Counted from the stretch's first letter, positions 6,335 to 54,612 are shown. The stretch: DNA of 64,000 nt from Candidatus Poribacteria bacterium (GCA_965232545.1 OZ246979.1:5734077-5798076); one strand, 5' to 3'. Made by a program: numbers and translations. The notes: a model not told the origin generated them from the letters alone.

Positions 6335-6397
6335 GGTAGGCGAGGTTTCTAACCTCGCCGGTGCAGAGTGTACAATTAATTCTAAAGTTTACCATAG
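6335..6397 (+). repeat. REP/terminator-like hairpin element (GGCGAGGTT-tct-AACCTCGCC plus CTCTTTAGAG...ATCTACCATAG tail)
   Basis: One of eight related copies (6335, 9475, 13487, 16104, 20636, 27169, 42949, 49228); five lie just downstream of plus-strand gene ends. Confidence 0.7.
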
Positions 6398-6743
6398 TTT
6401 GTAGCACCAGTCTTACTGTAGCGCAAACTGTTAGTTTGCGGCACCGGTCTGACGTGTGGACCAGACCAACATTTCAGTTGAGGTTTTCGGTTTAGCAAAA
6501 CTGTTCTCACTGTAGCGCAAACTGTTAGTTTGTAGCACCAGTCTTACTGTAGCGCAAACTGTTAGTTTGCGGCACCGGTTGGCACAAAAATTCGATATAA
6601 GCATACCAAAATCTGACGTGTGGACCAGACCAACATTTCAGTTGAGGTTTTCGGTTTAGCAAAACTGTTCTCACTGTAGCGCAAACTGTTAGTTTGTAGC
6701 ACCAGTCTCACTGTAGCGCAAACTGTTAGTTTGCGGCACGCGG
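6398..6743 (+). repeat. TGTAGC-box array; a 131-bp unit tandemly duplicated with a 164-bp period
   Basis: CTGACGTGTGGACCAGACC...TGTAGCGCAAACTGTTAGTTTGCGGCAC occurs at 6449-6579 and 6613-6743. At least eight TGTAGC boxes sit 17 to 20 nt apart. Each box contains the hairpin CAAACT-GTT-AGTTTG. Confidence 0.8.
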
Positions 6744-6753
6744 AGGTTGAAAC

Positions 6754-7284
6754 ATGAGACGAATTCGTTATTGCGTCGCTATGAGTCTCGACGGCTATAT
6801 CGCTGGACCCAACGGGGAATTCGATTGGATTGTCATGGATCCCGATATCGACTTCGCCGGAATGACCGAGCAGTTCGACACCTATCTACTCGGTAGACGG
6901 ACGTTTGAAGTCACGCGTGGGCACGAAGAGGCGGCGATGCCCGACGGAGAAACGTTCGTGATCTCGCGGACGTTACAACAGAGCGACCACGAGGATGTCA
7001 CAATCGTCGGTGAGAATTGGAAACAGGTCGTGCAGTCGCTCCGAGAGGAAGAAGGGAAAGACATCTGGTTGTTCGGTGGAGGCTCCCTATTTCGGAGTTT
7101 CGCCGAAGAGGGATTCGTTGACACGGTGGAGGTCGCTATCATCCCAATTGTGCTCGGTGGTGGTATTCCGCTCATTGAGGAACCGTCCGAGCAGATCCAA
7201 CTGACGTTAAAAGATCACACGGTGTACGGGAAAACGGGGACCGTTGGGTTGGTATACACCGTGAACAAGCCAAGCCAACCGTGA
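6754..7284 (+). CDS. Dihydrofolate reductase family protein (RibD C-terminal domain-like)
   Basis: 176 aa. Motifs CVAMSLDGYIAGPNGEFDW and LFGGGSLFRSF are typical of the RibD_C/YwjB family. Confidence 0.75.
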   Translation: MRRIRYCVAMSLDGYIAGPNGEFDWIVMDPDIDFAGMTEQFDTYLLGRRTFEVTRGHEEAAMPDGETFVISRTLQQSDHEDVTIVGENWKQVVQSLREEEGKDIWLFGGGSLFRSFAEEGFVDTVEVAIIPIVLGGGIPLIEEPSEQIQLTLKDHTVYGKTGTVGLVYTVNKPSQP

Positions 7285-7541
7285 GAAACCTCGCCTACCG
7301 TAACCTCTTTGTAGCACAACCTAAAAGTTTATGCTACAATAGATTTCCGCCGCGAATGTTTAAGTCGAACGCCTGTTAAAAAGGTTCCGTTATCTATAAA
7401 CTTGACGGATGGGTAATGAATTACCCTACTACAAACAATGGAATCTCACCAAGAGCGGAGGGCGTTTTGTTATCTGTTGTTCCTGAGATGTCTATCTATT
7501 TTCACAGCTGCGATAATACTTCAATACGAATGGTTTCACCT

Positions 7542-7572
7542 CCGATAACTGACAACTGATAACTGACAACTA
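7542..7572 (+). repeat. Heptamer direct-repeat array (CTGAYAA x4)
   Basis: CCGATAACTGACAACTGATAACTGACAACTA lies immediately upstream of the GTG start at 7579. Confidence 0.6.
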
Positions 7573-7578
7573 TTTTCC

Positions 7579-9468
7579 GTGAAGCGTCAACTCTCTCCTC
7601 TCAGTTTAAAAGCCGTTTGCATCGGACTCCTGCTGATTCCAGCGAATGCGATGTGGCAGATGATGGGGTTACGCTGGGACATCGCGCACATGTCGATGAT
7701 CTCACTGCTCTATAACACGATCACGCTCCTGTTCGTGCTGACAATCATCAATCGCTTCGCGAAAAAAGTCTCGCCGCAATTCTCTCTTTCCACTGCCGAA
7801 CTCCTGACGATCTATGTAATGTTGTGCCTCTCGACCGCTATCGGTGGGCACATGTGCGTGCAGATCCTCCTCCCGATTATCAGTTACGCATTCGCCTATG
7901 CATCGCCAGAGAACGATTGGCAGTCCCTGTTTTGGCACTATGTCCCGTCATGGGCATCCGTCACCGATAAGCGAGGACTCGCAAACTTTTTCGATGGTGG
8001 CTCTACGTTCTACCCGCACCTTGAGGCATGGAGCACCCCGTTGTTATGGTGGGGACTCTTTCTCGCCGCACTGTTTTCGGTCATGCTCAGTATCAACTTC
8101 ATCTTCCGAAGGCAGTGGACCGAAAATGAGAAGTTGAGTTATCCACTGATCCAGTTGCCGTTGGCGATGGCGAATCCGAGGAGCGGGTTCTTCCGTAGCA
8201 AGGCGATGTGGATCGGGTTCGGAGTTGCGGCTGCTATTGATCTCCTCAACGGGGTGAATTACCTGTTCCCACAGGTGCCACGACTCAGTGGTATCCGCGC
8301 GTATGACATCGCCGACTTCTTTACCGTCCGTCCATGGAACGCCATTACGTGGTTCCCCATCGGTATCTATCCATTCGCTGTTGGATTGGCGTTTTTTATG
8401 CCGTTGGAGTTGTCGTTTTCGTGTTGGTTCTTTTACCTATATTGGCAGGCGTTCCGCGTATTGGGAAGTGCCGTCGGATTGACAGCACCGTTTCCGTATG
8501 CCGAGGAACAATCTTTCGGAGCATATATCGGTATCGGTCTGGTTGCGGTGTGGAGTGCGCGTCGCTACTTGACGCAAGTGCTCCGTAGGCTGTTTGGCGC
8601 GCGATCTACACTTGATGACGGAGATGAACCGATCTCTTACCGTGCCGCGGTGACATGGATGTTGCTGAGTATGGTATTCCTTGTTGTTTTCTGTTACAAA
8701 CTTGGGATGTCGTTGTGGGTCATTGCGACCTTTTTTGGGTTGTTCTTCGGGTTAGCGACAGGGATTACGCGGATGCGTGCCGAACTCGGATCACCCGTTC
8801 ACGACCAGCATTATGCCGGTCCCGACAGGATGATGTATTCGGTCTTCGGCGCGAAACGGCTCGGTGCGAGTAATCTGACGGGGTTGGCGTATCTCTACTT
8901 TTTCAATCGTGCCTACGATTGCCTGTTGATGCCGCACCATCTTGAGGGGTTGAAGATAGCCGAGCGTGCCGACATCGAAAACAAGACCTTCGCGAAGGCG
9001 GTCATCATCGCTATCGGTGTGAGTATCGTTGCGACGATCTGGGCATATCTACACGTCTCATATCAGGACGGTGTCTATACGGCATGGGCAGGCAGAGAGA
9101 CTTTCAGTCGGCTCGGTAGACGACTCGTCCAACCCGCGGGTCCCGATACCGCAGTGCTGAGCGCAGTCAGTGTGGGGACGGTTATGGCGATTCTCTTGGC
9201 TTTTTTCCGTAGTCGGTGGATGTGGATGCCATTCCATCCAGCGGGTTACGCCGTTACCAGCACCTTCACGATGAATTTCTTCTGGTTTTCGCTCCTCGTG
9301 AGTTTCATCTTGAAATGGATTATTACCAGACATGGCGGCATCGGCGGTTTTCGGAGGGCGGCACCTTTTTTCCTCGGTCTCGTGTTGGGTGAATTCGTCG
9401 TGACGACCTTCTGGGGCACCGTGGCGATTCTATTCCGTGTGGAGACCTATATTACGATCAATTTGTAA
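7579..9468 (+). CDS. Large polytopic membrane protein, uncharacterised family (paralog of 37489-39408)
   Basis: 629 aa, at least 12 predicted TM helices. About 45% identity to the 639-aa protein at 37489. Shared motifs include MPHHLEGLK and RAAPFFLGLVLGEF. The GTG start is uncertain. Confidence 0.6.
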   Translation: MKRQLSPLSLKAVCIGLLLIPANAMWQMMGLRWDIAHMSMISLLYNTITLLFVLTIINRFAKKVSPQFSLSTAELLTIYVMLCLSTAIGGHMCVQILLPIISYAFAYASPENDWQSLFWHYVPSWASVTDKRGLANFFDGGSTFYPHLEAWSTPLLWWGLFLAALFSVMLSINFIFRRQWTENEKLSYPLIQLPLAMANPRSGFFRSKAMWIGFGVAAAIDLLNGVNYLFPQVPRLSGIRAYDIADFFTVRPWNAITWFPIGIYPFAVGLAFFMPLELSFSCWFFYLYWQAFRVLGSAVGLTAPFPYAEEQSFGAYIGIGLVAVWSARRYLTQVLRRLFGARSTLDDGDEPISYRAAVTWMLLSMVFLVVFCYKLGMSLWVIATFFGLFFGLATGITRMRAELGSPVHDQHYAGPDRMMYSVFGAKRLGASNLTGLAYLYFFNRAYDCLLMPHHLEGLKIAERADIENKTFAKAVIIAIGVSIVATIWAYLHVSYQDGVYTAWAGRETFSRLGRRLVQPAGPDTAVLSAVSVGTVMAILLAFFRSRWMWMPFHPAGYAVTSTFTMNFFWFSLLVSFILKWIITRHGGIGGFRRAAPFFLGLVLGEFVVTTFWGTVAILFRVETYITINL

Positions 9469-9676
9469 AACTTCCCCTGCTGGCGAGGTTTCCTAACCTC
9501 ACCTATGAAGTAAACGTAGGAAGGATCTCTGAATCCCGATTACTGATGCCTAATCCTGAAAATCCTGATTCAGACTATGAATACCTACGTTACCCGATTA
9601 AATTCCTAATCTTCATTAGGGGTGTTATGTTTATAAATAGATGGCAACTTGCGTTATTATAGGACTTGGAGGTGAT

Positions 9677-10219
9677 ATGAAAGTCTTGGTCGGTTCCGAA
9701 AATCCAGTGAAAATTCAGAGCGTTCGGGACGGTTTTCTAACATTTTTTGAACATGTAGAGGTCGAAGGTATAAATGTTGATACAGGTGTTGCTGACCAGC
9801 CTATGAATGATGAGACATTTGAGGGTGCCAAACATCGCGCCGAGAACGTTAAGCGAATAAACGATCAACAGAACCTCGGCGCGACGTTTTTTGTCGGAAT
9901 TGAGGGAGGCGTTCTTCAACTGCAGGAGAGATGGTTTAGTGTGAATGTCGTTTATATTTTAGATAACCACAATCGAGACAGTTTTGCCACAACAGGACTT
10001 TATGAATTGCCGGGTGCGATATCGGAAGAACTTCTGATTGGAAAAGGATTAGGACGTGCCATGGGTGAACTTGCCAATGATACCTACGCCGCACGCGAAC
10101 ATGGCACCGTTGGGTTTTTGACAAATGGTAAGATGGATAGGTTCCAAAATCAGGTCCAAGGCATAACTTTAGCATTAATCCCTTTTGTGAATGACACCCT
10201 TTATTTTCCTTCTTCCTAA
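9677..10219 (+). CDS. yjjX: Inosine/xanthosine triphosphatase (YjjX family non-canonical NTPase)
   Basis: MKVLVGSENPVKIQSV aligns with the E. coli YjjX N-terminus. GGAGGT RBS is 5 nt upstream of the ATG at 9677. The 12-codon extension to 9641 in the ORF track is unlikely. Confidence 0.7.
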   Translation: MKVLVGSENPVKIQSVRDGFLTFFEHVEVEGINVDTGVADQPMNDETFEGAKHRAENVKRINDQQNLGATFFVGIEGGVLQLQERWFSVNVVYILDNHNRDSFATTGLYELPGAISEELLIGKGLGRAMGELANDTYAAREHGTVGFLTNGKMDRFQNQVQGITLALIPFVNDTLYFPSS

Positions 10220-10260
10220 TGGGCAACACAGAAAATAGATTGGATTGAGCGATTAAAGAC

Positions 10261-10336
10261 AGAGATTCATCGCTGACTGCTAATTGCTAATCGCTAACCG
10301 CTAATTGCTATTCTTCTGACCGCCGACTGCCGACCG
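10261..10336 (+). repeat. Heptamer direct-repeat array (CTRAYYG x10)
   Basis: ctgactg ctaattg ctaatcg ctaaccg ctaattg ... ctgaccg ccgactg ccgaccg ctgaccg, lying between the convergent 3' ends of yjjX and the Gfo/Idh/MocA gene. Confidence 0.7.
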
Positions 10337-10351
10337 CTGACCGCCATATAT

Positions 10352-11431
10352 TCAATCGATTTCCCATTCCTGTAAACCGAGCGGCACAGGCTCAGGACGT
10401 TCCGTCGTGCTTTCGATGACGACGTGCTCACCCGTTTCAGAAGATTTGTCGAAAGCGCACATCACCTCAAGCACATGATATGCCAACGCGCCGTTCGCAC
10501 GGTGCTTGCGTCCCGAAAGGATAACCGACGCCATATCAATGACCCCAATCATCCGAGCATTGTTCGGGAAAGGGATTTCCTCGGCTTCCCAATCACCCCC
10601 TGCCGGACACACATTCACGGGACCCCCGAAACCGTTCGGATCAGGCACCGTCATTGAGCCGGTTTCACCGTAGATTTCGATGCACGGAAGACTGTGCCGC
10701 CACATGTCGAAACTCATAATCATTGTGATGATCGCACCGTTCTGGAATTCGATTGAGCCGGTGAGGTGAGTTGTAATTTTGACAGGGATACGTAAACCGC
10801 GCACGGCTTGACTCGTCGCGACACGTTCTTCAAAGGCTTTCGTCGTAATCGCGGCAACGCGTTTGACGGGACCGAGAATATTGACGAGGGCAGTCACATA
10901 ATAAGGCCCCATATCCAGCATCGGTCCGCCGCCGAGGTCGTAGTAAAAGGCCGGATTTGGATGCCAACTTTCGTGTCCGTGTCCGCACATAAAAGCGGTG
11001 CCAGCGATAGGTTTCCCAATTTTCCCCGCGTCCAGTGTTTGCCGAGAAGTCTGGATACCCGCACCGAGGAAAGTATCGGGTGCCGATCCGACGCGTAATC
11101 CCTTTTCAGCGGCGGTATCAATGAGTTGTTTTCCGCTCTCGGTGTCCACGCCGAGCGGTTTTTCGCTATAGACGTGTTTACCGGCTTCCAAGACTTGTAA
11201 GCCGACTTCGACGTGTGCCCGCGGGATGGTGAGATTCACAACGAGTTCGATCTCATCGTCTGCGAGCAATTCATCGACGCTGCATGCGTGGGAGTTGTAT
11301 TTTTCGGCTTGCGCCTGTGCGGATTCCATTCGGAGGTCGGCACAGGCTTTGATTTCTAAAATGTCGGTTTTTCGTGCCCCTTCAAAGTAGGCACTGCTGA
11401 TGGTTCCACAACCAATAATTCCAATTTTCAT
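10352..11431 (-). CDS. Gfo/Idh/MocA family NAD(P)-dependent oxidoreductase
   Basis: N-terminal Rossmann motif MKIGIIGCGTIS and the typical C-terminal alpha/beta domain. Confidence 0.8.
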   Translation of the reverse strand: MKIGIIGCGTISSAYFEGARKTDILEIKACADLRMESAQAQAEKYNSHACSVDELLADDEIELVVNLTIPRAHVEVGLQVLEAGKHVYSEKPLGVDTESGKQLIDTAAEKGLRVGSAPDTFLGAGIQTSRQTLDAGKIGKPIAGTAFMCGHGHESWHPNPAFYYDLGGGPMLDMGPYYVTALVNILGPVKRVAAITTKAFEERVATSQAVRGLRIPVKITTHLTGSIEFQNGAIITMIMSFDMWRHSLPCIEIYGETGSMTVPDPNGFGGPVNVCPAGGDWEAEEIPFPNNARMIGVIDMASVILSGRKHRANGALAYHVLEVMCAFDKSSETGEHVVIESTTERPEPVPLGLQEWEID

Positions 11432-11460
11432 ATTTTTAACTATGTGCTCCTGGACTGCCT

Positions 11461-13422
<1,962 letters not shown>

Positions 13423-13432
13423 TCAGTTTGCA

Positions 13433-13755
13433 TTTATGATGAATCCTAAAAATACATAGACATCTTAAAGAAACAACAGTCCTCCTCCGCTGGCGAGGTT
13501 TCTAACCTCGCCTCTTTAGAGTGTCTAAGTAATTCTAAAATCTACCATGTATATTTGCATTTACATAATTGTCTGTGCCACTGCCGCCTGTTATTCTGCA
13601 GCTTGGCTTTTCACATCGTATATCTTTCGCCTCAGTCGAAAAATCAATCTCTATTCCACCTAACATACTAACACAAGTTCGACATTTTCGCAAGTCGCAT
13701 GACAAGGGTAGCACGGGCATTTAATGTCTATTTATTTTTAGGATTCACCATAAAA
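13433..13755. mobile_element. MITE-like insertion with about 36-bp terminal inverted repeats in the thiC leader / glcB upstream region
   Basis: Left end TTTATGATGAATCCTAAAAATACATAGACATCTTAAA (13433-13470) matches the reverse complement of the right end at 13718-13755 at about 33 of 36 positions. The element carries a REP-like hairpin at 13487-13549. Confidence 0.55.
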
Positions 13756-13904
13756 AGCCCTGATTTGTCAAAAAAATGATTGACAAACTACCAATCTATT
13801 GCTATGATTAAATCACAATTGCGGCAAAATTTGTTGTCAGTGCAGTGAAGCATCGATTAACGAGGATCCAACACCTTACAGCATCTTGGAATGGAGAAAA
13901 GAGT

Positions 13905-16088
13905 ATGGGAAACCGAATTGAAGTCGGTAATCTCAGGATAGATGAAGATTTGTATGCATTAGTAAAAGATGAGATCGCACCCGGTACGGGGGTAGAGGCA
14001 GATGCCTTCTGGAAAGCGTTCGGCGACATCATTGCGGCGTTCGTACCAGAAAATAAGGCACTCTTAGAGAAACGGGATACACTCCAACAGCAGATTGACG
14101 AGTGGCATCTGGCGCGCAAAGATGAACCGTTAGACAGTGAGGCGTATTCGGCGTTTCTGAAGGATATAGGCTATCTACTTCCTGAAGGACGCGATTTTAC
14201 TGTGATTACCGAAGACGTTGACACAGAGATTTCGCTCATCTCAGGTCCACAATTGGTTGTCCCGACCGATAACGCTCGCTATGCCCTGAACGCCGCGAAC
14301 GCACGCTGGGGAAGCCTCTACGATGCGCTCTACGGCACCGATGTCATCGATGAATCGGACGGGGCGACACGAGGGACTGCCTATAACCCGATCCGGGGCG
14401 CGAAAGTCATCGCGTACACCGAAAATTTTTTAGATGAAATGACGGAACTTGAAACTGGAAGTTTCTCCGACGTTACGGGATTTTCCCTCAAAACCGTCCG
14501 AGACGAGCAGCAGTTACGGGCAACACTCAGTGATGGCAGTGAGGTCGGGTTAGCCGATCCAACCAAATTTGTAGGTTTTACGCAAAACGATGGCAAACTC
14601 AGTGCTATTCTGTTACGCAACCACGGACTGCACATCGAAATACAAATAGACCGAGATCATCCCGTTGGAAAGGTACACCCTGCCGGTGTTGTTGATGTTA
14701 TCCTTGAATCAGCAATCACGACGATCCAAGATTGCGAGGATTCCGTCGCCGCGGTGGATGCCGCGGACAAGGTACGCGTCTATAGCAATTGGAACGGCAT
14801 TATGAAGGGGACGCTGGAGACAACGTTTGAAAAAAACGGCGAAACGCTTACCCGTCACCTCGCACCGGATAAGACATTTACCGCACCCGATGGCGGTACG
14901 GTGACCTTGCCCGGCAGAAGCCTGCTCCTAATTCGGAATGTGGGACTCCACATGTACACCGATGCCGTCACGACAGCGGACGGTGAGGAGATTCCGGAAG
15001 GCATTCTTGATGCCATGGTAACGAGTTTCGCCGCAATGCATGACCTCCAAGGCAACGGTCCCCGCACCAATAGCAAAACGGGGAGTATCTACATCGTCAA
15101 GCCGAAGTTCCACGGACCTGAAGAGGTTGATATGACGATTCGGATGTTTGAGTGGATTGAATCGGCGCTTGGGCTTCCAACGAATACTATTAAGATTGGG
15201 ATTATGGATGAGGAACGGCGGACGACCGTCAATCTCAAAGAGGCGATCCGAGTCGCACAGGAACGCCTCGTCTTTATTAACACCGGGTTTTTGGATAGAA
15301 CCGGCGATGAAATCCATACGAGTATGGAAGCGGGACCCGTGATTCCGAAGATGGACATCCGCAACGAGCCGTGGATGCTCGCTTATGAGGATTGGAACGT
15401 CGATATCGGGATTGAAACCGCACTGCTCGGTACTGCGCAAATTGGGAAGGGGATGTGGACGAAACCTGACCAGATGGCAGAGATGGTTGAAACGAAGGTG
15501 AATCACCCCTTGGCGGGGGCGACAACCGCATGGGTGCCATCGCCGACAGCCGCAACGCTTCATGCGATGCACTACCACCGGGTTGATGTTGGAAATTGGA
15601 TAAAGGAATTGTCCGCGAGACAACGTGCAAGTTTGGATGATCTGCTAACACCGCCGCTGTTGAAGGATCGCGAGTTACAACCCGATGAGATTCAGCGCGA
15701 ATTGGATAACAACGCCCAGGGTATCTTGGGATACGTCGTCCGATGGGTGGACCAAGGTATCGGTTGCTCGAAGATACCCGATATTAACAACGTCGGGTTA
15801 ATGGAGGATCGAGCGACACTGCGGATTTCGAGTCAACACATCGCAAATTGGCTGCGCCACGCCATCGTTACGAAGGAACAGGTAACCGAAACGTTCCAGC
15901 GGATGGCGAAGATCGTTGACGAGCAGAACGCCGGTGACCCGAATTATCGGGATATGTCACCGAATTATGACCAGAGCACCGCGTTTCAAGCGGCTTTGGA
16001 TCTGGTTTTTAAAGGGTGTGAACTACCGAACGGGTATACCGAGTTCGTGCTACATCCGCGTCGACGAGAGGTCAAAGCAGGCAGCTAA
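13905..16088 (+). CDS. glcB: Malate synthase G
   Basis: Strong N-terminal match to E. coli GlcB (RIDANF.., [31 protein letters not shown]). RBS GGAGAAAAGAGT precedes the ATG at 13905. Confidence 0.9.
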
Positions 16089-16182
16089 GTCTGTCTCCAA
16101 CACGGGTAGGGGCGGTTTCTAACCGCTCCGAGTTAAATACATGCTTATTTGGACTCAGGTTCCTATAAGATGACGAGAACAT

Positions 16183-16225
16183 AAAAAAGGGAAGGGTGAA
16201 TAACGCATCCTTCCCTGTCTTTTTC
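16183..16225. terminator. Bidirectional intrinsic terminator between glcB and the amidohydrolase gene
   Basis: AAAAAA-GGGAAGG-gtgaataacgcat-CCTTCCC-TGTCTTTTT: a 7-bp GC stem flanked by an A-run and a T-run. Confidence 0.7.
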
Positions 16226-16235
16226 GGAATTACTT

Positions 16236-17093
16236 CTATAAATCCAGTCTATAAAATTTAATCGCGTTATCTCGGAAGAGGTTGCCTAACGCCTCAGATG
16301 AGCACCCGGATACTGCCGCTCTCAAGGTCTCTACCCACCGTGGATACGCCGAGGCTTGCGTGGAGACGGGCCAATCGCTACCGTATATGACGCGATCGAA
16401 GCCGAAGCAGTTAATAATGTGTTCGATATACGGTTGTAGATCGGCGGGAGTCCATGCTTCAAAGTCAGCCTCTGTGACCAGACCTGATATTTTACAATGG
16501 ACATTCGGCAACGCCGCGAGCGTTTGGATCTCCTGTTTCCACGGATCAAAAAGTTGATTTTTGATGTCCGGTTTACCGATGTGGTCTAAGATGAATTGGA
16601 CGTGCGGACACTGTTCCACGAGCCGAATGGCATTGGCGAGTTGCGGATGGAAAATACAGATATCGAAACTCAATCCGTAGCGGGAGAGCGTTTTAACACC
16701 ACTCACAAAATCGGGTTGGACGCAGAAATCTACGCTTTCAGATTGGATGAGGCGGCGGATACCTTTGACGAGCGGATTCTCTGCCAACTTTTCAACAAAA
16801 GGGGCGACCTGTTCTCCCTCTTCGAGCGGTGCCCATGCAACAATACCCTGAATCCGGGGATCTACTGTCGTCGCAAGATCCGTAACCCACGTTGTCTCTT
16901 TCAATCCGTCATCCGGATGTGTATCGCACTGGACAAACACGATGGATTCAATATCCAGTTCGCCGGACGCATCGTTGTAATCTTTTAGGAGATAAGGTCT
17001 GTTTAGGGCTGGGACTTCCGTGAGCCACGGGTATCTCAGTTGTTGCGGATGCCATAGGTGAACGTGCGTGTCAACGATCGGGAATTTCTCCAT
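16236..17093 (-). CDS. Amidohydrolase family protein (amidohydrolase-2 / metal-dependent hydrolase)
   Basis: N-terminal metal-binding IVDTHVHLW and a TIM-barrel hydrolase pattern. Confidence 0.7.
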   Translation of the reverse strand: MEKFPIVDTHVHLWHPQQLRYPWLTEVPALNRPYLLKDYNDASGELDIESIVFVQCDTHPDDGLKETTWVTDLATTVDPRIQGIVAWAPLEEGEQVAPFVEKLAENPLVKGIRRLIQSESVDFCVQPDFVSGVKTLSRYGLSFDICIFHPQLANAIRLVEQCPHVQFILDHIGKPDIKNQLFDPWKQEIQTLAALPNVHCKISGLVTEADFEAWTPADLQPYIEHIINCFGFDRVIYGSDWPVSTQASAYPRWVETLRAAVSGCSSEALGNLFRDNAIKFYRLDL

Positions 17094-17348: not shown

Positions 17349-17451
17349 TTCTGCCAACTGCCTCTTGACGGCTATTCCTCTGACCGCCGACCGCCGACCG
17401 CTGACCGCCGACCGCTGATTGCTGACTGCTGACTGCTAACCGCTGATAGCC
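17349..17451 (+). repeat. Heptamer direct-repeat array (GCYGAYY, about 14 units)
   Basis: gctgacc gccgacc gccgacc gctgacc gccgacc gctgatt gctgact gctgact gctaacc gctgata, upstream of ThuA copy 1. Confidence 0.75.
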
Positions 17452-17527
17452 ATTCACCAAAAGGGTTTGCCAAAAAGTCTGATGATGTGCTAAACTGATA
17501 GATATTTCCAATGGAGGCGTTAAGGAT

Positions 17528-18331
17528 ATGTCAGAAAAATCTCGAATTGTTATGGTGGCAGGAAGTGCGAGTCATGGCGGTGGCGCGCATGAGCATCCCG
17601 CGGGGTGTGCCTATCTCGCCGATCAGTTGAACAAGGCTGTGGACAGCGTGGAAGTCGTGGTCTCGCAGGGATGGCCCGAAGATCCAGCGACTTTCACCGA
17701 TACAGATGCCATTATTGTTTACTCGGACGGTGGTGCTGGGCATCTTAGCATTCCACACCTTGAACAGATCTCTGGACTGGTGGAACAGGGTATCGGACTT
17801 GGGATGTTACACTATGCTGTGGAAGTGCCGAAGGGGGAACCCGGAGATCGCTTCTTGGAGTGGATCGGCGGCTACTTTGAGACCCACCTTTCGGTCAATC
17901 CGTATTGGACAGCAACGTTTACCGGATTTCCTGAACACCCCACAACACGCGGAATAGAGCCGTTTTCATTGGAAGACGAGTGGTATTACCACATGCGGTT
18001 TCGTGAAAATATGCAGGGTGTGACACCTGTGTTGAGTGCCATCGCACCTGCTTCGACACTTGAGAGACCCGACGGACCGCATAGCGGGAACCCGCATGTG
18101 CGCGCATCGGTAGCCAACGGTGAGCCGCAGCATCTCGGGTGGTGTGTAGAGCGTCCGGATGGAGGACGTGGATTCGGATTTACCGGCGGGCATCTCCATC
18201 GGAATTGGGCGGATGACGACCTCCGTAAATTCATTCTCAACGCGATCGCATGGACAGCAAAGGTAGAAATTCCTGAAGGGGGTATCTCTACGCCAACCCC
18301 GACTGAGGCAGAATTGGAGGCATATCTGTAG
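17528..18331 (+). CDS. ThuA-like (trehalose utilisation) domain protein, copy 1
   Basis: 267 aa ThuA/class-I glutamine amidotransferase-like fold. About 80% aa identity to the copy at 19749. A 40-bp promoter-region block is shared. Confidence 0.75.
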   Translation: MSEKSRIVMVAGSASHGGGAHEHPAGCAYLADQLNKAVDSVEVVVSQGWPEDPATFTDTDAIIVYSDGGAGHLSIPHLEQISGLVEQGIGLGMLHYAVEVPKGEPGDRFLEWIGGYFETHLSVNPYWTATFTGFPEHPTTRGIEPFSLEDEWYYHMRFRENMQGVTPVLSAIAPASTLERPDGPHSGNPHVRASVANGEPQHLGWCVERPDGGRGFGFTGGHLHRNWADDDLRKFILNAIAWTAKVEIPEGGISTPTPTEAELEAYL

Positions 18332-18560
18332 TTTTAGAGTCAATAACCCCAAGCTAAAGCATGGGGCTTGTGCGAAGCGTATGCCAAACGTTCACTCCAC
18401 AAGTTAAACTATTTTCTACAGTAAAATATCGCAGTATCTGGGCGTGGCAGCCTAAACAATGTTTCGGATACTCCCCTCGTCTGACTCACTCTAAGATATT
18501 GTGATCTGTAAGGGGCAATATACAACCCGTAAGGGAGATTACAAACTATGTTTGTTCCGG
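18332..18560 (+). ncRNA. Candidate omega-RNA region for IsrB (placement by analogy with IscB/IsrB systems)
   Basis: IscB/IsrB guide RNAs are encoded immediately upstream of, and overlapping, the ORF 5' end. The region opens with the IS-end hairpin CCCCAAGCTAAAGCATGGGG at 18347-18366. Boundaries not determinable by eye. Confidence 0.3.
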
Positions 18561-19600: not shown

Positions 19601-19748
19601 TTGATGATTTGGGTAATTCTGCACGGCTATTAAGTTTTCCTGTCTGGAATCCATTTTGAATACGAAACATTGCTGCCGAGATCCAGGGGACCTTAAGGCA
19701 TAGGGTGTGCTAAACTGATAGATATTCCCAACGGAGGATCCAAAAAAT

Positions 19749-27159: not shown

Positions 27160-27168
27160 GAAGCAACA

Positions 27169-27263: not shown

Positions 27264-27284
27264 TTGTCGGTGAGAGCCTCTTTA

Positions 27285-41108: not shown

Positions 41109-41146
41109 TGGTAAAGTAGGAGGGGGTTGTAGCCTCGATATTTTTT

Positions 41147-42884: not shown

Positions 42885-42948
42885 CTGTTTTTATCAACCT
42901 ATAGTAGCTTCCGAAAATAAGTTTACATTTTGGTAAACAGGTCCCGCC

Positions 42949-43046
42949 GTTTCGCTGGCGAGGTTTCTAACCTCGCCTCTTTGTAAGTAAGTGCGGGCTT
43001 TACTATATTTGTTTCGCTGGTAAGGTTCTAACTACCTTGATACTCC
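42949..43046 (+). repeat. REP/terminator-like hairpin element, two copies in tandem (second degenerate)
   Basis: GTTTCGCTGGCGAGGTTTCTAACCTCGCCTCTTTG ... GTTTCGCTGGTAAGGTTCTAACTACCTT. Confidence 0.6.
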
Positions 43047-43112: not shown

Positions 43113-43279
43113 AGCCTGCAACAGCGGCGCAGGCGGATATGAGGAACGCGCGAGATAGACATAACGGACGTGCTTCCTCCGCAAGGTATAATTAGAAAGC
43201 CTGCAACAGCGGCGCAGGCGGATATGAGGAACGCGCGAGATAGACATAACGGACGTGCTTCCTCCGCAAGGTATAATTA
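43113..43279 (+). repeat. Tandem duplicated leader module (82 nt x2) ending in CCGCAAGGTATAATTA, immediately upstream of the 43301 gene
   Basis: Unit 1 is 43113-43194, unit 2 is 43198-43279. Contains the palindrome GCCTGC-aacagcggc-GCAGGC. TATAAT at 43272-43277, then AAAAACA, RBS GAGGAGG, and the ATG at 43301. Confidence 0.8.
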
Positions 43280-43300
43280 AAAAACAGAGGAGGATCAAAC

Positions 43301-44516: not shown

Positions 44517-44600
44517 GCATGTAGGGGCAGGTCTTGTGCCTGCCCGCATATTACCGAATATGAGAAAACGCATGTAGGGGCAGGTCTCGTGCCTGCCCGC
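44517..44600. terminator. Pair of tandem GC hairpins between convergent genes (GCATGTAGGGGCAGG-TCTYGTG-CCTGCCCGC x2)
   Basis: Two 31-nt copies at 44517-44547 and 44570-44600, each with a 7-bp GC stem. They share the GTAGGGGCAGG prefix with the REP-like family. Confidence 0.5.
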
Positions 44601-44609
44601 TGTGAACGA

Positions 44610-47316: not shown

Positions 47317-47339
47317 TTAAAAAATACGGATGTGCTATA

Positions 47340-48437: not shown

Positions 48438-49204
48438 ATGTGTTTGACGCAATCACACAGCGACGCAGCCATCGCGGCACGTTTCAGAACCGCGCAATTG
48501 ATGCCGCAGACCTTGAAAAACTCATTGAAGCCGCGCGATGGACACCCTCGCCGTTCAATGTTCAACCTTGGGAACTTGTGCTCGTTCAGGAGGCAGACGG
48601 CAAGACGGCACTCGCCGATGTAACCGAGCGTGCTATCGTTGAACAATTCAAAGATGCCAAGTTTCTTGATGATAATAGCCGTTGGATGCGTCTCACAGAG
48701 ACAGACTTGGAGGAGTTCGGTGATGGCGTGCTACTTACGGACCACGTTACGCTGCCGAAATTACTTCAGGACGCACCAGATGGGTTATTGGAGGGTGTGT
48801 TGAAAAATGCGAAGGCGTTCACACTATTGGGGCATTTAGGGGCAGGGAAGATACCCGCTAAAGAGATCGCGGCACAGGTTCGTGAAGCACCACTACTCAT
48901 CTTGGTTACGATGAATTGCAAGAGATATCCACCTGGGGACGGCGGAACGCGATGGATGTGGTTGAGTATGGGGATGCTAATTCAGAATGTACTCCTCGCT
49001 GCAACTGCTTTAGACATCGGTGTGCAATTTGTCAGTGCACCTCTGGAGCACCCCGAAAATCGTGAACGGGTGCGTCAACTTTTCAATATCCCGACTGCTC
49101 ATGAAGTGATTACGCTGCTGAGGATGGGATATGTGGAGGAGCGTCGTGGGGACTCTGTTCGGTTGCAGTCATCAGAGTTTGTTCACTTTGAAAAGAGAGA
49201 GTAG
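48434..49204 (+). CDS. Nitroreductase family protein
   Basis: RRSHRGTF...ARWTPSPFNVQPWE motif. Overlaps the upstream stop (ATGA). Confidence 0.75.
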   Translation: MNVFDAITQRRSHRGTFQNRAIDAADLEKLIEAARWTPSPFNVQPWELVLVQEADGKTALADVTERAIVEQFKDAKFLDDNSRWMRLTETDLEEFGDGVLLTDHVTLPKLLQDAPDGLLEGVLKNAKAFTLLGHLGAGKIPAKEIAAQVREAPLLILVTMNCKRYPPGDGGTRWMWLSMGMLIQNVLLAATALDIGVQFVSAPLEHPENRERVRQLFNIPTAHEVITLLRMGYVEERRGDSVRLQSSEFVHFEKRE

Positions 49205-49442
49205 GTGGGCACAGCAACCCGCCGTTGCACCGCTGGCGAGGTTTCCTAACCTCGTCGGTTCCAAACTCACATGAGTGTAGGCGGGCACAGCGACCCGCCG
49301 CTATCGAGATGTAGTATATTAAGTGCCGCTGTTCTGTAATAGTTCTTTCAATGCTGCTTTCTTTCTTTTCAGTCGACGTTGTTGGCGTTGGCGGATTTGT
49401 GTCCTACGTCGGACCTGTCCGCTTTTACTCCGTGGCATAATG

Positions 49443-50684: not shown

Positions 50685-50966
50685 GGTAGTATTTTCACTA
50701 TTGGAGTAGCTATTGGATGAACTTTTTTTCAGGGTGTTTTTAATTCCAAACGTAGCATAACATCAAGTTCAGCGTGCTATTAAGTATATAGCATTGCGAA
50801 TTTATTGTCAAGTTTAAATTTTTTAGAGGAATATGGTGTTTTAGGTGAGGCTCTCCGTTCTTTTGTAGAGCGGAAACGGATGAAAAACGCGGTTAATATT
50901 GCCCTTGAACCCTCTCCAGTCTAAAGACTGGAGATTCCTTTTGTTCCTCGTGGGAACATTCTCCGC

Positions 50967-51584
50967 TCAAGCGGAACAACATCGGACTTCTAAGCGAATA
51001 CCGACGGGCGATGCCATAGTCGCCGCTACTGGGACACCTAAGTGTCCAAGATACTTTTGTCTTATATTGATTGCGCCTACACCATCGCGATGATATGTAA
51101 AGCCACATTTACAGGTGTAGTTACGATTAGTAGGCTTCTTTCTATTGCCACAATGCGGACAAGTCTGCGAAGTGTAAGACTCATCAATCACTTCCACTTT
51201 GATACCTAAAGTCCTGGCTTTGTAGGTGATGAGTTGTGTGATTTTACCAAATGCCCACTGGTGTAACTTTTGATTCGCATGCTTGCCATAGTTGATATTT
51301 TCACGAATGCCAGTTAAATCGCCAAGCACAATGGTGCCAATACCACGCGATTCACACAACTTTACAAACTTTGTAGTGTGTTTGTGTAAGCCGTCCATTA
51401 TCTGGTTATCAATCTTTTTGATGCGTTTCCATTTGCGTTTCACCAGATGCCACCAGCGTTGAGAATGACGTTCGCACCTATCTATTTTCTTGCCAAATGA
51501 CGCGATTACCTTATGCCTCAACCGGTATAGACTTCTAATATACCGCCCATTAAAGATGTTAGTAATCACACCATCATGACTCAC
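50967..51584 (-). pseudogene. tnpB: N-terminally truncated TnpB (IS200/IS605 OrfB) remnant
   Basis: Retains RuvC-II IVLGDLTGIRE, zinc finger CPHCG...CKCG and RuvC-III HRDGVGAINIR, but lacks the RuvC-I region. Downstream hairpin CTCCAGTC-taaa-GACTGGAG at 50915-50934. Confidence 0.65.
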
Positions 51585-51848
51585 TTTTTTTTAGAAATTT
51601 GACGAATGACAAAATTTGTGTTATTATATATAGAAAATAGAGCGAATTTTGCTGTTAGAACACGCTCTGTGTAAGAGGGAGCAACCTAACGCTCCTCTTG
51701 AATTGCTAAATTCTTAATTTGGATACACCTTGATTGTAGTAATCTTATGAGGGAAAGCGGGGTTGCTAACTTCGTTTTAGTGTTTCATTTTTTTAATAGC
51801 AGTTTTCAAAATTTGACGTTTACGTCGAAATCGAAGAGGGAAAATTAT

Positions 51849-54542
51849 ATGTATTACAGTAAATATCTCAAACCGATCATCTTCGCACTCAGTATCTTTG
51901 TAGTTATTGCGATGTGTACGTTTACAACGGTCATTGCACAGGAAGAAGCCAGCGATGCGGAGGAAACAGAAGCCACCGCGGACGAGGCTGAAGCATCTGA
52001 AGAAGCATCTGAGGCGGATGCGCCTGTGAGACTTGAGAGTCTTGTCGTGGTGGGATCGCGTTCCCAACCGCGCTCCGTCTTGGATTCAGCGGTCCCGATC
52101 GATATTGTGTCAAACGAATCCTTTCAAAAACAGGGTGGCGCAGATCTACCGGATTTATTGAGAGCTTTGGTGCCGTCTTATAACATCAATACACAGCCGA
52201 TTAGCGATGCGTCAACAGTGGTCCGTCCGGCGAATTTACGGGGACTTGCCCCAGACCATACATTGGTGTTGGTCAACAACAAGCGGCGACACCGTGCCGC
52301 AGTGATTCACTGGCTCGGGAACGGTCTGTCTGATGGTTCACAGGGACCTGACCTGGCACCGATTCCCGCAATTGCGCTGCGACAGGTGGAGATCCTCCGT
52401 GATGGCGCATCCGCACAATACGGTTCTGATGCCATTGCCGGCGTGATGAACTTTCAGCTGAAAGACAACCACGAAGGCGGTTCGTTTGAATTCAAACCCG
52501 GTATCTACCAATACGGCGATGGTCGACAATTTGCTGTCGCAGGGAATATCGGTTTAGGGAATCCAGACGCGTGGAGTAGCCTCAGCTTTGAATACGGTGG
52601 TGCAGATCCGACCATCCGGTCTGTCCAACGTAATGATGCCATAGCCATGATTAACGCAGGCAATTTTAGTGTGAAAGACCCGGCGCAAATTTGGGGACAA
52701 CCGATTATAGAGAATGACATCAAATTGTTTGCCAACTACGGTGCCACCCTCACAGATACCATCAATTTCTATGGACATGCCAACTACGCCCGAAAGCGGG
52801 TTGAAGGCGGATTCTATTTCCGTAACCCGAATACCCGCGGCGGTGTGTTTAGTACGACCGGTGGCGATACGTTGCTCGTCGGGGATATGCGGGGTTTGAC
52901 AGCAGAAATGGCGGATTGGGAAACCCGAAAAGCGGCAGCAGAGGCTGCTGGGCAGGAGTTTACTGAACTGTCACCTCACGATGCTGACGATATTCCGATA
53001 ACCAATCACGTCCCTGATCCCGAACGTTTGCAAGCCGTCAAGAGTGACCCGAATCTATTCACATTCCAAGAGATGTTCCCAGGCGGATTCACACCCAGAT
53101 TTGGGGCATTCATGTGGGATAGTTCCGTCGTCGTTGGTGTTAAAGGCACCGCGCTCAAAGACACATTGGGTAAGGACTTAACGTGGGATCTGAGTGGTTC
53201 TTTTGGACGGAACCATGCTGATTTCTTTATCTTCAACACCGTTAATGCTTCGCTCGGACCAGACACACCGACATATTTTGATCCGGGCGACTATATCCAG
53301 ACGGATTATAACCTCAACTTCGATGTAACCTATCCGCTCAGCGACATGGTGTTCCTCGCTTCTGGTTTGGAATATCGGGACGAAGGATTTGAAATCATAG
53401 AGGGCGAACGCGAGTCGCATCAGATCGGCCCCCTCGCAGCGCAAGGCTTTACGGCTGCCTCCAACGGATTTTCGGGGTTCAGTCCAGTTGCGGCAGGCAA
53501 GTGGCACCGTTACAACGTTGCCGCATATCTGGAGACTGAAATCAGACCGATTGATCCGCTCCTGATCGCACTGGCTGTGCGCGGTGAACAATTTGAGCTT
53601 TTCGGTGGTGCCCTGAACTACAAAGTCGCTGCAAACTACAAGGTTACGGAAACGATGCGGTTGCGGGGAAGTTATAGTACCGGGTTCCGCGCTCCCACAC
53701 CCGGGCAGCAAAATACGTTCAACATTACCACTGAATACGATTTTGCGAAGGGGGATCTCGTTAATAAAGGAACAATTCCTTCCACCAACCCTGCTGTCGA
53801 TGTTGTGACAGGTAAGGAAGATAACTCGCTTGACCCGGAAACATCAAATAACTTCTCAGGTGGATTTACCGTTGATATTTTGGGCGTAAATGTCACGATG
53901 GACTTTTTTGATGTTCGGTTGAAAAACCGGTTATCGGTGTCACAACACTTTACATTGACTGACGGACAGAAGGCAGATCTCATCGCCGCAGGTGTAACCA
54001 GTGCAGCGAATCTGGAAACATTCCAGTTCTTTATCAATGACTTCGCTACTACAACCAATGGTATTGACTTTGTCGTTACAGCACCAATACCCAACGGAAA
54101 CCTCATCGCCGTGTATAACTTCACGAACACCACAGTTACCGATCACAATCCGGACACGCTGGACGATCATCGAATCAGGGAACTGCAAGAGAATTTACCC
54201 GCACACCGCGCCAGCGCGACTGTTATTCAATCCATAACGGACATGTGGTCGGTCCTCGGGCGCGCCAGTTATTTCAGTGGTTGGTTCGATTCTGAAGATT
54301 TCTTACAGAATCCAGATGTGCCAGGCACTGGAGAATACACTGGAAGGGTTATTTTCGACTTAGAAACCACTTACACCGTCGGGTCGGGAATCGCTCTCAC
54401 GCTCGGTGGAAGAAATATCCTTAATACCTTTCCCGATGAAAATCCGAATGGTGCTGATTCTGTCGGTAACAAATACGGACAGTTCAGTCCGTTCGGTTTT
54501 GATGGGGCGTACTGGTATGCCAAAGTCGGATACCAATTCTAA
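51849..54542 (+). CDS. TonB-dependent outer-membrane receptor
   Basis: Signal peptide, plug domain, long beta-barrel, and a C-terminal aromatic residue (...AKVGYQF). Start MYYSKYLK at 51849. Confidence 0.8.
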   Translation: MYYSKYLKPIIFALSIFVVIAMCTFTTVIAQEEASDAEETEATADEAEASEEASEADAPVRLESLVVVGSRSQPRSVLDSAVPIDIVSNESFQKQGGADLPDLLRALVPSYNINTQPISDASTVVRPANLRGLAPDHTLVLVNNKRRHRAAVIHWLGNGLSDGSQGPDLAPIPAIALRQVEILRDGASAQYGSDAIAGVMNFQLKDNHEGGSFEFKPGIYQYGDGRQFAVAGNIGLGNPDAWSSLSFEYGGADPTIRSVQRNDAIAMINAGNFSVKDPAQIWGQPIIENDIKLFANYGATLTDTINFYGHANYARKRVEGGFYFRNPNTRGGVFSTTGGDTLLVGDMRGLTAEMADWETRKAAAEAAGQEFTELSPHDADDIPITNHVPDPERLQAVKSDPNLFTFQEMFPGGFTPRFGAFMWDSSVVVGVKGTALKDTLGKDLTWDLSGSFGRNHADFFIFNTVNASLGPDTPTYFDPGDYIQTDYNLNFDVTYPLSDMVFLASGLEYRDEGFEIIEGERESHQIGPLAAQGFTAASNGFSGFSPVAAGKWHRYNVAAYLETEIRPIDPLLIALAVRGEQFELFGGALNYKVAANYKVTETMRLRGSYSTGFRAPTPGQQNTFNITTEYDFAKGDLVNKGTIPSTNPAVDVVTGKEDNSLDPETSNNFSGGFTVDILGVNVTMDFFDVRLKNRLSVSQHFTLTDGQKADLIAAGVTSAANLETFQFFINDFATTTNGIDFVVTAPIPNGNLIAVYNFTNTTVTDHNPDTLDDHRIRELQENLPAHRASATVIQSITDMWSVLGRASYFSGWFDSEDFLQNPDVPGTGEYTGRVIFDLETTYTVGSGIALTLGGRNILNTFPDENPNGADSVGNKYGQFSPFGFDGAYWYAKVGYQF

Positions 54543-54582
54543 ACCTGTCTCGTGAAAAGTGCTGAATATGCTTTTCGTAAAA

Positions 54583-54612
54583 GGCGCGGTTCCAACCGCG
54601 CCTTTTCAATTT
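54583..54612 (+). terminator. Intrinsic terminator after the TonB-dependent receptor gene
   Basis: GGCGCGGTT-cc-AACCGCGCC followed by TTTTCAATTT. The stem matches the REP-like family. Confidence 0.65.

Follow-up and report, generated by a model that had tools for sequence, protein, structure and literature searches.

GTAG-tagged REP-type hairpins and TA-flanked miniature elements with hairpin cores in the intergenic DNA of Candidatus Poribacteria

The intergenic DNA of a 64,000-nucleotide stretch from a Candidatus Poribacteria bacterium (GCA_965232545.1 OZ246979.1:5734077-5798076; hereafter, the window, with positions counted from its first letter) carries a family of short hairpins, the core of which, GGCGAGGTT-TCT-AACCTCGCC, a 9-bp stem closed by a TCT loop, is perfect at 6339-6359, 13492-13512 and 42957-42977. 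Poribacteria are uncultivated sponge symbionts. A first-pass annotation of the window had described, between 6335 and 54612, a hairpin family with a GTAGG/GCTGG head that resembles repetitive extragenic palindromic (REP) sequences or terminators, often has a shared 3' extension, and is located mostly just after plus-strand gene ends. When the core was searched with 3 mismatches allowed, shuffled sequences gave a mean of 0.14 matches, and none of 100 shuffles reached the observed count; the feature is far beyond chance. The elements of the window are listed below; MITE stands for miniature inverted-repeat transposable element, and E values and model positions refer to nhmmer searches with a hidden Markov model (HMM) built from 40 such elements.

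6294-6396, plus strand: MITE copy of the GTAGG-head subfamily, with tag GTAG at 6336-6339, hairpin at 6339-6359 and right terminal repeat at 6360-6396, ending ...TTTACCATA; left end degenerate; E = 1.2e-16
7287-7299, minus strand: half-site AACCTCGCCTACC (reverse complement of GGTAGGCGAGGTT), directly 3' of the stop of a RibD_C gene
7420-7510, minus strand: left half of a MITE, degenerate; E = 6e-3, model positions 13-68
9479-9503, plus strand: solo REP-type hairpin GCT-GGCGAGGTT-TCCT-AACCTCACC, 14 nt after the stop of the gene at 7579-9468
13435-13549, plus strand: full-length MITE with left repeat TATGATGAATCCTAAAAATACATAGACA, hairpin at 13492-13512 and right repeat ...TCTAAAATCTACCATG; E = 4.9e-23, model positions 1-115
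13695-13752, minus strand: lone MITE terminal repeat (TATGGTGAATCCTAAAAATAAATAGACAT...); E = 1e-4, model positions 1-50
16106-16129, plus strand: solo variant hairpin GTAG-GGGCGGTT-TCT-AACCGCTCC, tag from 16106, stem from 16109
20638-20678, plus strand: degenerate GTAGG-headed relative GTAGGGGCAG-GTGTTTTTGCTGGGGTGTTTCC-CGCACC, which the MITE HMM does not detect
27156-27262, plus strand: degenerate REP (27156-27176), large-loop hairpin with tag (27189-27225) and right terminal repeat of a MITE (27226-27262), without left repeat; HMM match 27155-27262, E = 3.2e-8, model positions 47-116
42900-43007, plus strand: full-length MITE with TA at 42900-42901 and 43006-43007 and hairpin at 42957-42977; E = 5.1e-20
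43014-43040, plus strand: old degenerate solo hairpin (TCGCTGGTAAGGTTCTAACTACCTTG) adjoining the MITE insertion site
49201-49299, plus strand: three REP-type hairpins, read from the sequence, head-to-tail in a convergent spacer, namely GTAGGTGGGCACAGCAACCCGCC (49201-49223), GCT-GGCGAGGTT-TCCT-AACCTCGTC (49232-49256, the family copy) and GTAGGCGGGCACAGCGACCCGCC (49277-49299)
54579-54606, no strand assigned: AAAAGGCGCGGTT-CC-AACCGCGCCTTTT, a bidirectional A-run/hairpin/T-run intrinsic terminator without tag, after a TonB-receptor gene

All true members of the family in the window are intergenic, and variants of the core do lie at the sites annotated originally. Thus, the copy at 9482-9503 has a TCCT loop and one C.A mismatch, the copy at 49235-49256 a TCCT loop and one G.U pair, and the copy at 16109-16129 (GGGGCGGTT-tct-AACCGCTCC) one full compensatory pair and one wobble pair; at 27189-27225, the family arms surround a 20-nt loop insert, with an arm relic at 27168-27176. 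The site that falls short is 20638-20678, which has in common with the family only the tag and a ~22-nt loop-insert module, as at 27199-27219; its stem is nearer to the GTAGGGGCAGG family, as judged by comparison with the large-loop copies in loci L040 and L046 and a hybrid copy in L116. Hairpins of different GTAGG families have the module, GTGTTTTTG(A/C)T(A/G)GGG(T/C)GTTTC, inserted in their loops (window 27199-27219 and 20647-20668; L040 5330-5466; L046 1731-1866; L116; L118). Copies beyond those originally noted were identified at 7287-7299, 7420-7510 (minus strand), 13695-13752 (minus strand) and 43014-43040, and the HMM gave weaker partial matches at 9447-9519, 13695-13752 (minus strand), 49181-49282, 16071-16147 and 7420-7510 (minus strand). 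The proposed location after plus-strand genes holds for six sites, 7-125 nt 3' of a plus-strand stop codon, but not for the 13492 and 42957 copies, which lie in divergent spacers, with the upstream gene on the minus strand (thiC/malate synthase and ychF/129-aa open reading frame (ORF), respectively).

The elements closely adjoin the genes of the window. The full-length MITE at 13435-13549 is 19 nt from the start of the thiC ORF, and the one at 42900-43007 is 16 nt upstream of ychF; the variant hairpin at 16106-16129 begins 18-21 nt past the malate synthase stop, the stop codon ending at 16088. In two cases, the tag itself provides the stop codon: the TAG of the sulfatase gene (27157-27159) comes from the REP tag GTAG at 27156-27159, and that of the nitroreductase gene (49202-49204) from the GTAG tag (49201-49204) of the GTAGGTGGGCACAGCAACCCGCC hairpin. 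The computed RNA folding energies are -13.4 kcal/mol for 9479-9503, -14.6 kcal/mol for 16106-16129 and -18.7 kcal/mol for the middle copy of the 49201-49299 cluster. In thiC (13380-13435), an internal ATG at ~13392, preceded by GGAGG, is a likelier start than that of the longest ORF; an Rfam gathering scan detected no thiamine pyrophosphate riboswitch upstream of the thiC ORF. Rfam and tRNA scans of the window produced no match, and an exact-protein look-up of the 129-aa ORF beside ychF returned no record.

We analyzed the window together with 113 loci (~0.93 Mb altogether) that were picked for carrying the exact core in a scan of species-representative genomes; this set contains 126 exact copies of the 21-mer core. 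The element is lineage-restricted to Poribacteria. Among the matches listed, the exact 21-mer is present in more than 113 stretches from at least 37 assemblies, and these are labelled Candidatus Poribacteria, save two unlabelled 'uncultured bacterium' metagenome-assembled genomes (MAGs) and one 2.3-kb contig filed under Dehalococcoidia; no exact 21-mer was found in viral contigs. The palindrome acquires a polarity from its loop, TCT on one strand and AGA on the opposite one, and in the 126 exact copies oriented by the loop, the 5' tag is GCT-G in 69 and GTA-G in 42. The unit is of the REP type, 24-25 nt long, with a tag, G(T/C)(A/T)G, that overlaps the foot of a 9-bp G+C-rich stem, and a loop of 3-4 pyrimidines; across the family, the loop ranges from 2 to ~25 nt, varying more than the stems. 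The family is extragenic, as first proposed: 119 of the 126 exact copies are intergenic, compared to 82% coding sequence in the sample (both by crude gene calls). In solo hairpins, only the tag and the hairpin are conserved, the 5' flank being rich in pyrimidines and the 3' flank rich in T.

Neighboring copies are arranged head-to-tail in 50 pairs and inverted in 9, and there are hairpin-only tandem arrays with periods of 27, 42 and 58 nt. Orthologous spacers contain one, two or three family hairpins depending on the species, and sister GTAGG hairpins are present in 1-9 tandem copies. Interpretation of the hairpin arrays as CRISPR was rejected, given that the 'spacers' are identical in L004 and L109. 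The strand of the hairpins showed no link with GC skew, and an apparent strand uniformity within single chromosomes was dismissed as a sampling artefact of the matches listed. All sister hairpin families in the same genomes are GTAGG-tagged. In the window, those with other stems are GTAGCGCAAACTGTTAGTTTGCG (6233-6735), GTAGGGGCAGGTCTTGTGCCTGCCCGC (two copies, 44521-44601), GTAGG(T/C)GGGCACAGC(A/G)ACCCGCC (49201 and 49277) and a GTAGGAGGGG... unit near 41120.

Half of the feature described originally is a TA-duplicating MITE. When copies are sorted by their flanks, subfamilies emerge in which ~45-60 nt on either side of the hairpin are conserved, the two sides being mutual inverted repeats. The ~37-nt 3' extension seen at 6360-6396, 13513-13549 and 27226-27262 had been taken for part of a 3' untranslated region (3'-UTR) module; this part of the first-pass annotation has to be abandoned because the extension, CTCTTTAGAGYGTCYAARTAATTCTAAWATCTACCATAG, is mirrored at the opposite end and hence is the right terminal inverted repeat of a MITE. 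A search by ends only (left TATAGTAAA..., right ...TTTACTATA, 90-165 nt apart) retrieved 45 elements with no ORF, 94-160 nt long and clustering at 103-104 and 115-119 nt. They have the frame TA-TAGTAAA...TTTACTA-TA, with imperfect ~28-nt terminal inverted repeats (TAGTAAAnCCnAAAAATAAGT..ACA ... TGTnnAAnTAATTnnnnnnTTTACTA) and two end types (TATAGTAAAnCCnAAAAATAAGT..ACA and, in reverse complement, GTGTnnAAnTAATTnnnnnnTTTACTATA); the polarity of the hairpin is fixed, the AAAAATAA-type end always being on its 5' side. A single long hairpin is the predicted fold of the entire MITE (for the minus strand of window 13435-13551, -42.1 kcal/mol and z = -6.3; for L045, z = -5.4), and different hairpin families serve as cores within similar frames. 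Classified with the HMM, 42 of the 126 exact cores belong to full MITEs, 27 have a single terminal repeat and 57 are bare cores (solo).

The ychF neighborhood provides a direct comparison of filled and empty sites. Gene order is conserved in four relatives, L114 (98% YchF identity), L115 (92%), and L116 and L117 (91%), and in L114, L116 and L117 the site is empty, with a single TA (...AACC-TA-TTTGTTTCGC...), compared to ...AACC-TA-(TAGTAGCTTCC...GGGCTTTACTA)-TA-TTTGTTTCGC... in the window. The MITE at 42900-43007 is, then, a precise, recent, lineage-specific insertion with TA on both sides. The old degenerate hairpin at 43014-43040 is found at the same position in the three relatives that lack the MITE. 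In L063, three MITEs are nested, each interrupting the right repeat of its host at AAT-TA-ATT, with TA at both junctions. No clean empty site was identified among the first 113 loci. TA duplication is the signature of both IS630/Tc1-mariner transposition and the Correia elements.

Solo hairpins and full MITEs differ in their genomic distribution. Relative to the upstream gene, 32 solo copies are co-oriented and 14 opposed (p = 0.011), whereas full MITEs are evenly split (19 and 19); non-random orientation, on which the first-pass annotation had staked its interpretation, is therefore true of the solo hairpins in the sampled loci and not of the MITEs. By spacer type, 26 solo copies are in unidirectional, 11 in convergent and 5 in divergent spacers, compared to 2 convergent and 8 divergent locations for full MITEs; the available spacer DNA amounts to 13.8 kb convergent vs 26.8 kb divergent. 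When all copies are compared with the surrounding genes, the TCT strand is sense at 83 loci and antisense at 41 (p = 7e-5).

Changes in the stem were analyzed in 44 distinct sequences that are within five substitutions of the core and have the tag, the latter being a criterion independent of pairing. Pairing is retained in 90.2% of the stem cells, compared to 33-49% in slid controls; double-change cells number 24 vs 8.1 +/- 2.1 in shuffles, and the covariation score is 0.254 vs 0.155 (0/500 shuffles as high in either case). Compensatory change types are seen in 4 of the 9 stem pairs, and there is a discrete stem subfamily, GGTGCGGTT/AACCGCACC, with 12 copies at 11 loci, along with GGCGCGGTT/AACCGCGCC, GGCGGGGTT/AACCCCGCC, GGCTGGGTT/AACCCAGCC and GGCGAGGAT/ATCCTCGCC. 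Changes of C to T in the 3' arm, where a G.U pair then remains, were counted in 54 copies, and the mirror change, G to A in the 5' arm, in 14 (copies, not independent events), an asymmetry suggesting that it is the TCT strand that folds, either as RNA or as single-stranded DNA. At the level of the family, the original claim of paired stem changes stands. The solo copy behind the DUF6785 gene (window 9482) has orthologues in L118-L120 (93% identity of the neighboring protein) and L123 (86%), the region behind this gene being replaced in L121 and L122, and each lineage has an uncompensated mismatch of its own (C.A in the window, G.G in L118-L120, A.C in L123), which argues against structure selection at individual sites. 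The covariation thus probably reflects the needs of the propagating copies, with dispersed copies drifting subsequently, rather than selection for a terminator at each site.

Taken together, these observations make it probable that two nested kinds of selfish non-coding mobile DNA are involved, a REP-type hairpin of the GTAG-tagged class and a TA-inserting MITE of 103-160 nt with such a hairpin for a core. The hairpin would spread as single copies and head-to-tail arrays, mostly just downstream of genes and on the sense strand, by a REP-type route, possibly through a RAYT-like (REP-associated tyrosine transposase) Y1/HUH enzyme for which the folded single strand would be the substrate; tandem duplication on a local scale could add to the spread. 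The MITE inserts at TA, duplicating it, and its predicted mobilizer, acting in trans, is a DDE transposase of the TA-duplicating IS630/Tc1-mariner type that would recognize the terminal repeats. Under this scheme, source copies would have to fold to be propagated, which would account for the compensatory stem changes, and dispersed copies would decay.

Several points weigh against this scenario. The conservation of the core relative to the flanks is partly an artefact of choosing loci by the exact core, and the gene calls are crude. An element that carries one TA and inserts without duplication would formally yield the same filled and empty sequences. Only for the MITE, and for no solo hairpin, did the comparisons yield a clean empty site; mobility of the latter is inferred from the 57 exact cores in unrelated flanks and the tandem arrays. 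Neither a RAYT nor an IS200-type or DDE transposase, nor an autonomous partner with the same repeats, was detected in the ~0.93 Mb. Finally, the majority tag in Poribacteria, GCTG, is not among the degenerate forms (GYAG, GYRG, GTRG and GTMG) listed for GTAG-REPs (Di Nocera, De Gregorio & Rocco 2013, PMC3733652), and neighboring copies are head-to-tail rather than inverted dimers, which most REP families form, although this arrangement is usual and not obligatory (PMC3733652).

Among the alternatives, the one that fares best, although it too appears improbable, posits a single layer, namely, that only the MITE is mobile and that the solo hairpins are remnants left by deletion or decay of the terminal repeats, without any REP-type propagation. 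The 27 copies that keep just one terminal repeat and the many half-elements that break at the hairpin are consistent with such erosion, and the number of solo copies is an upper bound given that a regex-based classifier called even the 13435-13549 MITE 'solo'. However, neutral decay should strike the core and the flanks alike, and 57 copies retain a 21/21 core without any HMM-detectable flank; solo copies and full MITEs are distributed differently; the arrays with 27-, 42- and 58-nt periods consist of hairpins alone; and in clusters the family hairpin is found beside GTAGG hairpins of other types, devoid of terminal repeats.

Slightly less likely still is the reading favored in the first-pass annotation, under which the hairpins are host-selected 3'-UTR terminators or RNA stabilizers, each kept for its function, with compensation resulting from selection on RNA at each site. 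The preference of solo copies for convergent spacers and for locations 3' of co-oriented genes, the sense-strand bias, the dominance of G.U-preserving changes, the stability of the hairpins (-13 to -19 kcal/mol) and the persistence of some copies at orthologous sites across species all fit this view. The same can be said of the T-tracts (at least 5 T in 8 nt) that follow 9 of the 40 solo copies behind co-oriented genes, but among all hairpins such tracts follow only 17 of 126. Furthermore, a terminator scan of window 6000-17000 flagged no family hairpin and did flag a canonical terminator at 16188-16216, 60 nt past the 16109 copy; only 54579-54606 has the form of a Rho-independent terminator, its stem being that of the minor subfamily GGCGCGGTT/AACCGCGCC, of whose 6 copies elsewhere 4 are headed by GTA. 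One third of the solo copies run opposite to the upstream gene or occupy divergent spacers, full MITEs show no orientation bias, and in L107 and L108 the hairpin ends 8 nt before the ATG of the next gene, a position at which a terminator presumably would cut that gene's transcription. Identity of 21/21 nt at more than 100 unrelated sites is indicative of copying, not convergence, and selection at each site is difficult to reconcile with the different uncompensated mismatches behind the DUF6785 gene in three lineages. A dedicated family of terminators is not what the window contains. As a secondary use, the minority of copies with a T-tract may terminate transcription, and, as far as can be judged from sequence, protection of RNA 3' ends by sense-oriented copies is plausible, the transcribed hairpin (about -15 to -19 kcal/mol) being potentially stabilizing.

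It is quite improbable that the extension is a portable promoter, the hairpin and the extension jointly acting as an insulator-promoter cassette for the downstream gene. The extension does end in hexamers resembling TAAAAT or TACTAT(AAT), with TTGACT in some subfamilies, full MITEs are relatively common in divergent spacers, and Correia elements create promoters at their ends (PMC2649163). However, the hexamers are wrongly spaced (15 nt or 3 nt apart), in 11-13 of the ~40 full copies the gene downstream is antisense, and the opposite end of the element has a mirror copy of the extension, as expected of a terminal inverted repeat; a sigma-70 scan detected no promoter in the window copies and identified, for the malate synthase gene downstream of one of them, a canonical TTGACA-17-TATGAT promoter at 13780-13808, well outside the MITE. 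The least credible possibility, to which we assign almost no weight, is that the palindrome, with its perfect 9-3-9 inverted repeat, conserved arms and loops more variable than the stems, is an operator for a dimeric DNA-binding regulator or an inverted-pair DNA-uptake-type signal, inasmuch as most copies are downstream of genes and far more numerous than the sites of any regulon, loops of 2 to ~25 nt would break half-site spacing, there is no excess of single arms in coding DNA or outside hairpins, and the changes are strand-asymmetric, with G.U tolerated.

With REP-type hairpins thus remaining the preferred interpretation of the solo layer, the Poribacteria family has much in common with the GTAG-tagged REPs, such as REP/BIME of E. 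coli, the Pseudomonas REPs and SMAG of Stenotrophomonas. These, too, are extragenic palindromes of 20-40 nt with a GTAG-type end tag that is unpaired or overlaps the foot of the stem, the stem being 6-13 bp and the loop 2-4 nt long; one genome harbors several stem families, with complementary-change subfamilies and frequent G.T pairs; they occupy unidirectional and convergent spacers near gene 3' ends; the tag is sometimes a TAG stop codon; and clusters are reiterated in tandem together with flanking DNA. The differences, besides the tag and the orientation of neighbors, are that a third of the Poribacteria copies form the core of a TA-flanked MITE and that no RAYT was found in the ~0.93 Mb. 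REPtrons, that is, RAYT genes flanked by REPs, are reported to be absent from some REP-bearing strains, and in Anabaena variabilis, REP dimers lie inside long palindromes beginning TATAGGA... (PMC3733652); the latter arrangement is the closest precedent for a REP core within a frame of terminal inverted repeats. REPINs, the RAYT-moved inverted REP doublets of Pseudomonas, similarly place a palindromic unit in a larger hairpin-forming mobile unit and show conservation of the fold at the family level, but consist of two inverted REPs and are not TA-flanked, whereas the Poribacteria unit is a single hairpin with unrelated terminal repeats and flanking TA.

The MITE layer most resembles, in architecture, the CREE/NEMIS elements of Neisseria, which are non-coding, 100-160 bp long, with ~26-28 bp terminal inverted repeats beginning TATAGT. 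The similarities extend to the TA at both ends, discrete length classes, a directional core, the fold as a long hairpin, the absence of a known cognate transposase, and the existence of two versions of the inner repeat (AACAAAAA or AAATTTAAA in Neisseria; AAAAATAA or AATTAAT in Poribacteria). Some Poribacteria MITE ends read TATGGTGGATTA or TATAGTGGATTT, compared to the Correia TATAGTGGATTA, but the likeness to the 26-bp Correia repeat, TATAGTGGATTAA(CAAAAA/ATTTAAA)..., is confined to the outer 9-12 nt of some copies, and the alignment statistics are only suggestive (mean score exceeded by 1 of 300 composition-matched shuffles, best score by 33 of 300), so that we file the MITE as Correia-like in architecture and not as a member of that class. 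In addition, the Poribacteria core is a GTAG-REP hairpin rather than an IHF site, and the host is different, CREE having been described as unique to Neisseria (PMC5039591). Miniature elements derived from IS630/Tc1-mariner, for instance, RUP of Streptococcus pneumoniae, are likewise small and intergenic, with terminal inverted repeats, TA duplication and presence/absence differences between close relatives; unlike these, the Poribacteria elements have no matching parent insertion sequence (IS) in the sampled loci and possess a central REP module of varying hairpin families. We consider it a speculative and rather unlikely extension that Correia-type MITEs are wider than Neisseria, with Poribacteria members that have GTAG-REP cores, and that propagation of REPs and MITEs is mechanistically linked, possibly through one hairpin-reading enzyme or through REPs repeatedly inserting into, or seeding, scaffolds of terminal inverted repeats; if the class were indeed that wide, complete Poribacteria MAG chromosomes could reveal the long-missing mobilizing enzyme.

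We found no description of Poribacteria REPs or MITEs in the searchable literature, and the elements are apparently new members of the GTAG-REP and Correia-like MITE classes, in a specialist's view a solid but unsurprising addition to known classes of repeats. Of moderate interest are the REP-in-MITE composite, the varied hairpin cores in similar frames and the Correia-like ends; various REP families as cores of a TA-duplicating MITE constitute a natural system for questions of REP and MITE propagation and may bear on what moves Correia-like elements. For annotation, the practical consequence is that these elements, which fill much of the intergenic DNA, come within 20 nt of gene starts (thiC, ychF) and supply stop codons, should be masked rather than called terminators, promoters or small RNAs. 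Relatives whose neighboring proteins are 91-98% identical differ in the presence or absence of these elements and in the number of tandem copies, which makes the elements strain-level markers for the sponge microbiome.

Several candidates for a mobilizing enzyme were assessed. A tblastn search of all loci with the E. coli RAYT and ISHp608 TnpA as queries returned only noise; there was no multi-copy protein family among 669 ORFs; and inverted hairpin pairs enclosed no RAYT-sized ORF. Terminal-repeat pairs 0.6-3 kb apart were rejected as autonomous elements given that they enclose truA, response regulator and enolase-family genes, and 'unpaired' terminal repeats turned out to be half-MITEs, often broken at the hairpin, rather than ends of an autonomous element. 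The ORF at 6754-7284, a possible RAYT next to a repeat cluster, encodes a RibD_C/DHFR-like protein. On the minus strand at 50967-51584, there is a 5'-truncated TnpB of 205 aa with Cas12f1-like TNB and OrfB_IS605 domains, with no TnpA nearby and a possible omega-RNA-like hairpin downstream (50913-50934); its presence indicates that IS200/IS605-type elements once existed in this genome, but its flanks carry an unrelated hairpin and it was rejected as the mobilizer.

The loop of the family hairpin is interrupted by a further small element (GGTTTC^...^TAACC) in L121 (~960-1100), L122, L118 and L119 (~1170-1210) and L004. It has the ends ATGAAG...CTTCAT and internal CGGTAAT/ATTACCG, with a possible relic at window 6297-6320, and recalls IS elements that target REP loops.

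Other repeats of the window show comparable patterns. A second GTAG-tagged family, GTAG-CGCAAACT-GTT-AGTTTGCG, is represented at 3902-3934, 6233-6743, 7301-7333 and 29799-29831, with six copies in the 5249/6754 spacer, which also contains a 164-nt tandem duplication (6448-6575 vs 6612-6739, 99% identical); in L082, a MITE that has the same terminal repeats contains this hairpin type as its core. At 44521-44601, in the convergent spacer between methyltransferase and isocitrate dehydrogenase genes, GTAGGGGCAGGTCT(T/C)GTGCCTGCCCGC occurs as two head-to-tail copies, both of which are present in L114, with one hybrid copy in L116 and none in L117. After the cytidylate kinase gene, the window has one degenerate GTAGGAGGGG...CCTCGAT hairpin with a T-run (~41115-41145), compared to 9 tandem 44-nt units (GTAGGAGGGGTTTGTAACCCCGAT-ATTTTT...) in L116 (4238-4626) and 7 in L117 (4238-4516), a rapid change of copy number between relatives with YchF 91% identical to that of the window.

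An 85-nt unit, AGCCTGCAACAGCGGCGCAGGCGGATATGAGGAAC...CCGCAAGGTATAATTA, is present twice directly upstream of the 129-aa ORF (43113-43282), once in L114 and L117 and four times in L116, without an Rfam match, and a related 107-nt repeat precedes the second SPFH gene (5002-5244); the unit may be a leader, a cis-regulatory RNA or a promoter-bearing repeat. The palindrome TTTGTCAA-aaaaatga-TTGACAAA (13764-13808) overlaps the -35 hexamer of the malate synthase promoter and may be an operator. Between two ThuA paralogues (17528-18331 and 19749-20552), the first 300 nt of which (17526-17825 vs 19747-20046) are 81% identical, lies an ORF for a 342-aa protein with an RRXRR domain (HNH-associated; 18548-19576); a homologous 340-aa ORF occupies the spacer upstream of ychF in L115 (1449-2471), and in L115 only, so that the gene looks mobile. 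Runs of 7-nt repeats (CTGACCG/CTGACAA/CTGATAA), common in other Poribacteria loci as well, are located in spacers, often just upstream of gene starts (window 3756-3794, 7549-7575, 10307-10345, 17371-17451 and 27276-27314).

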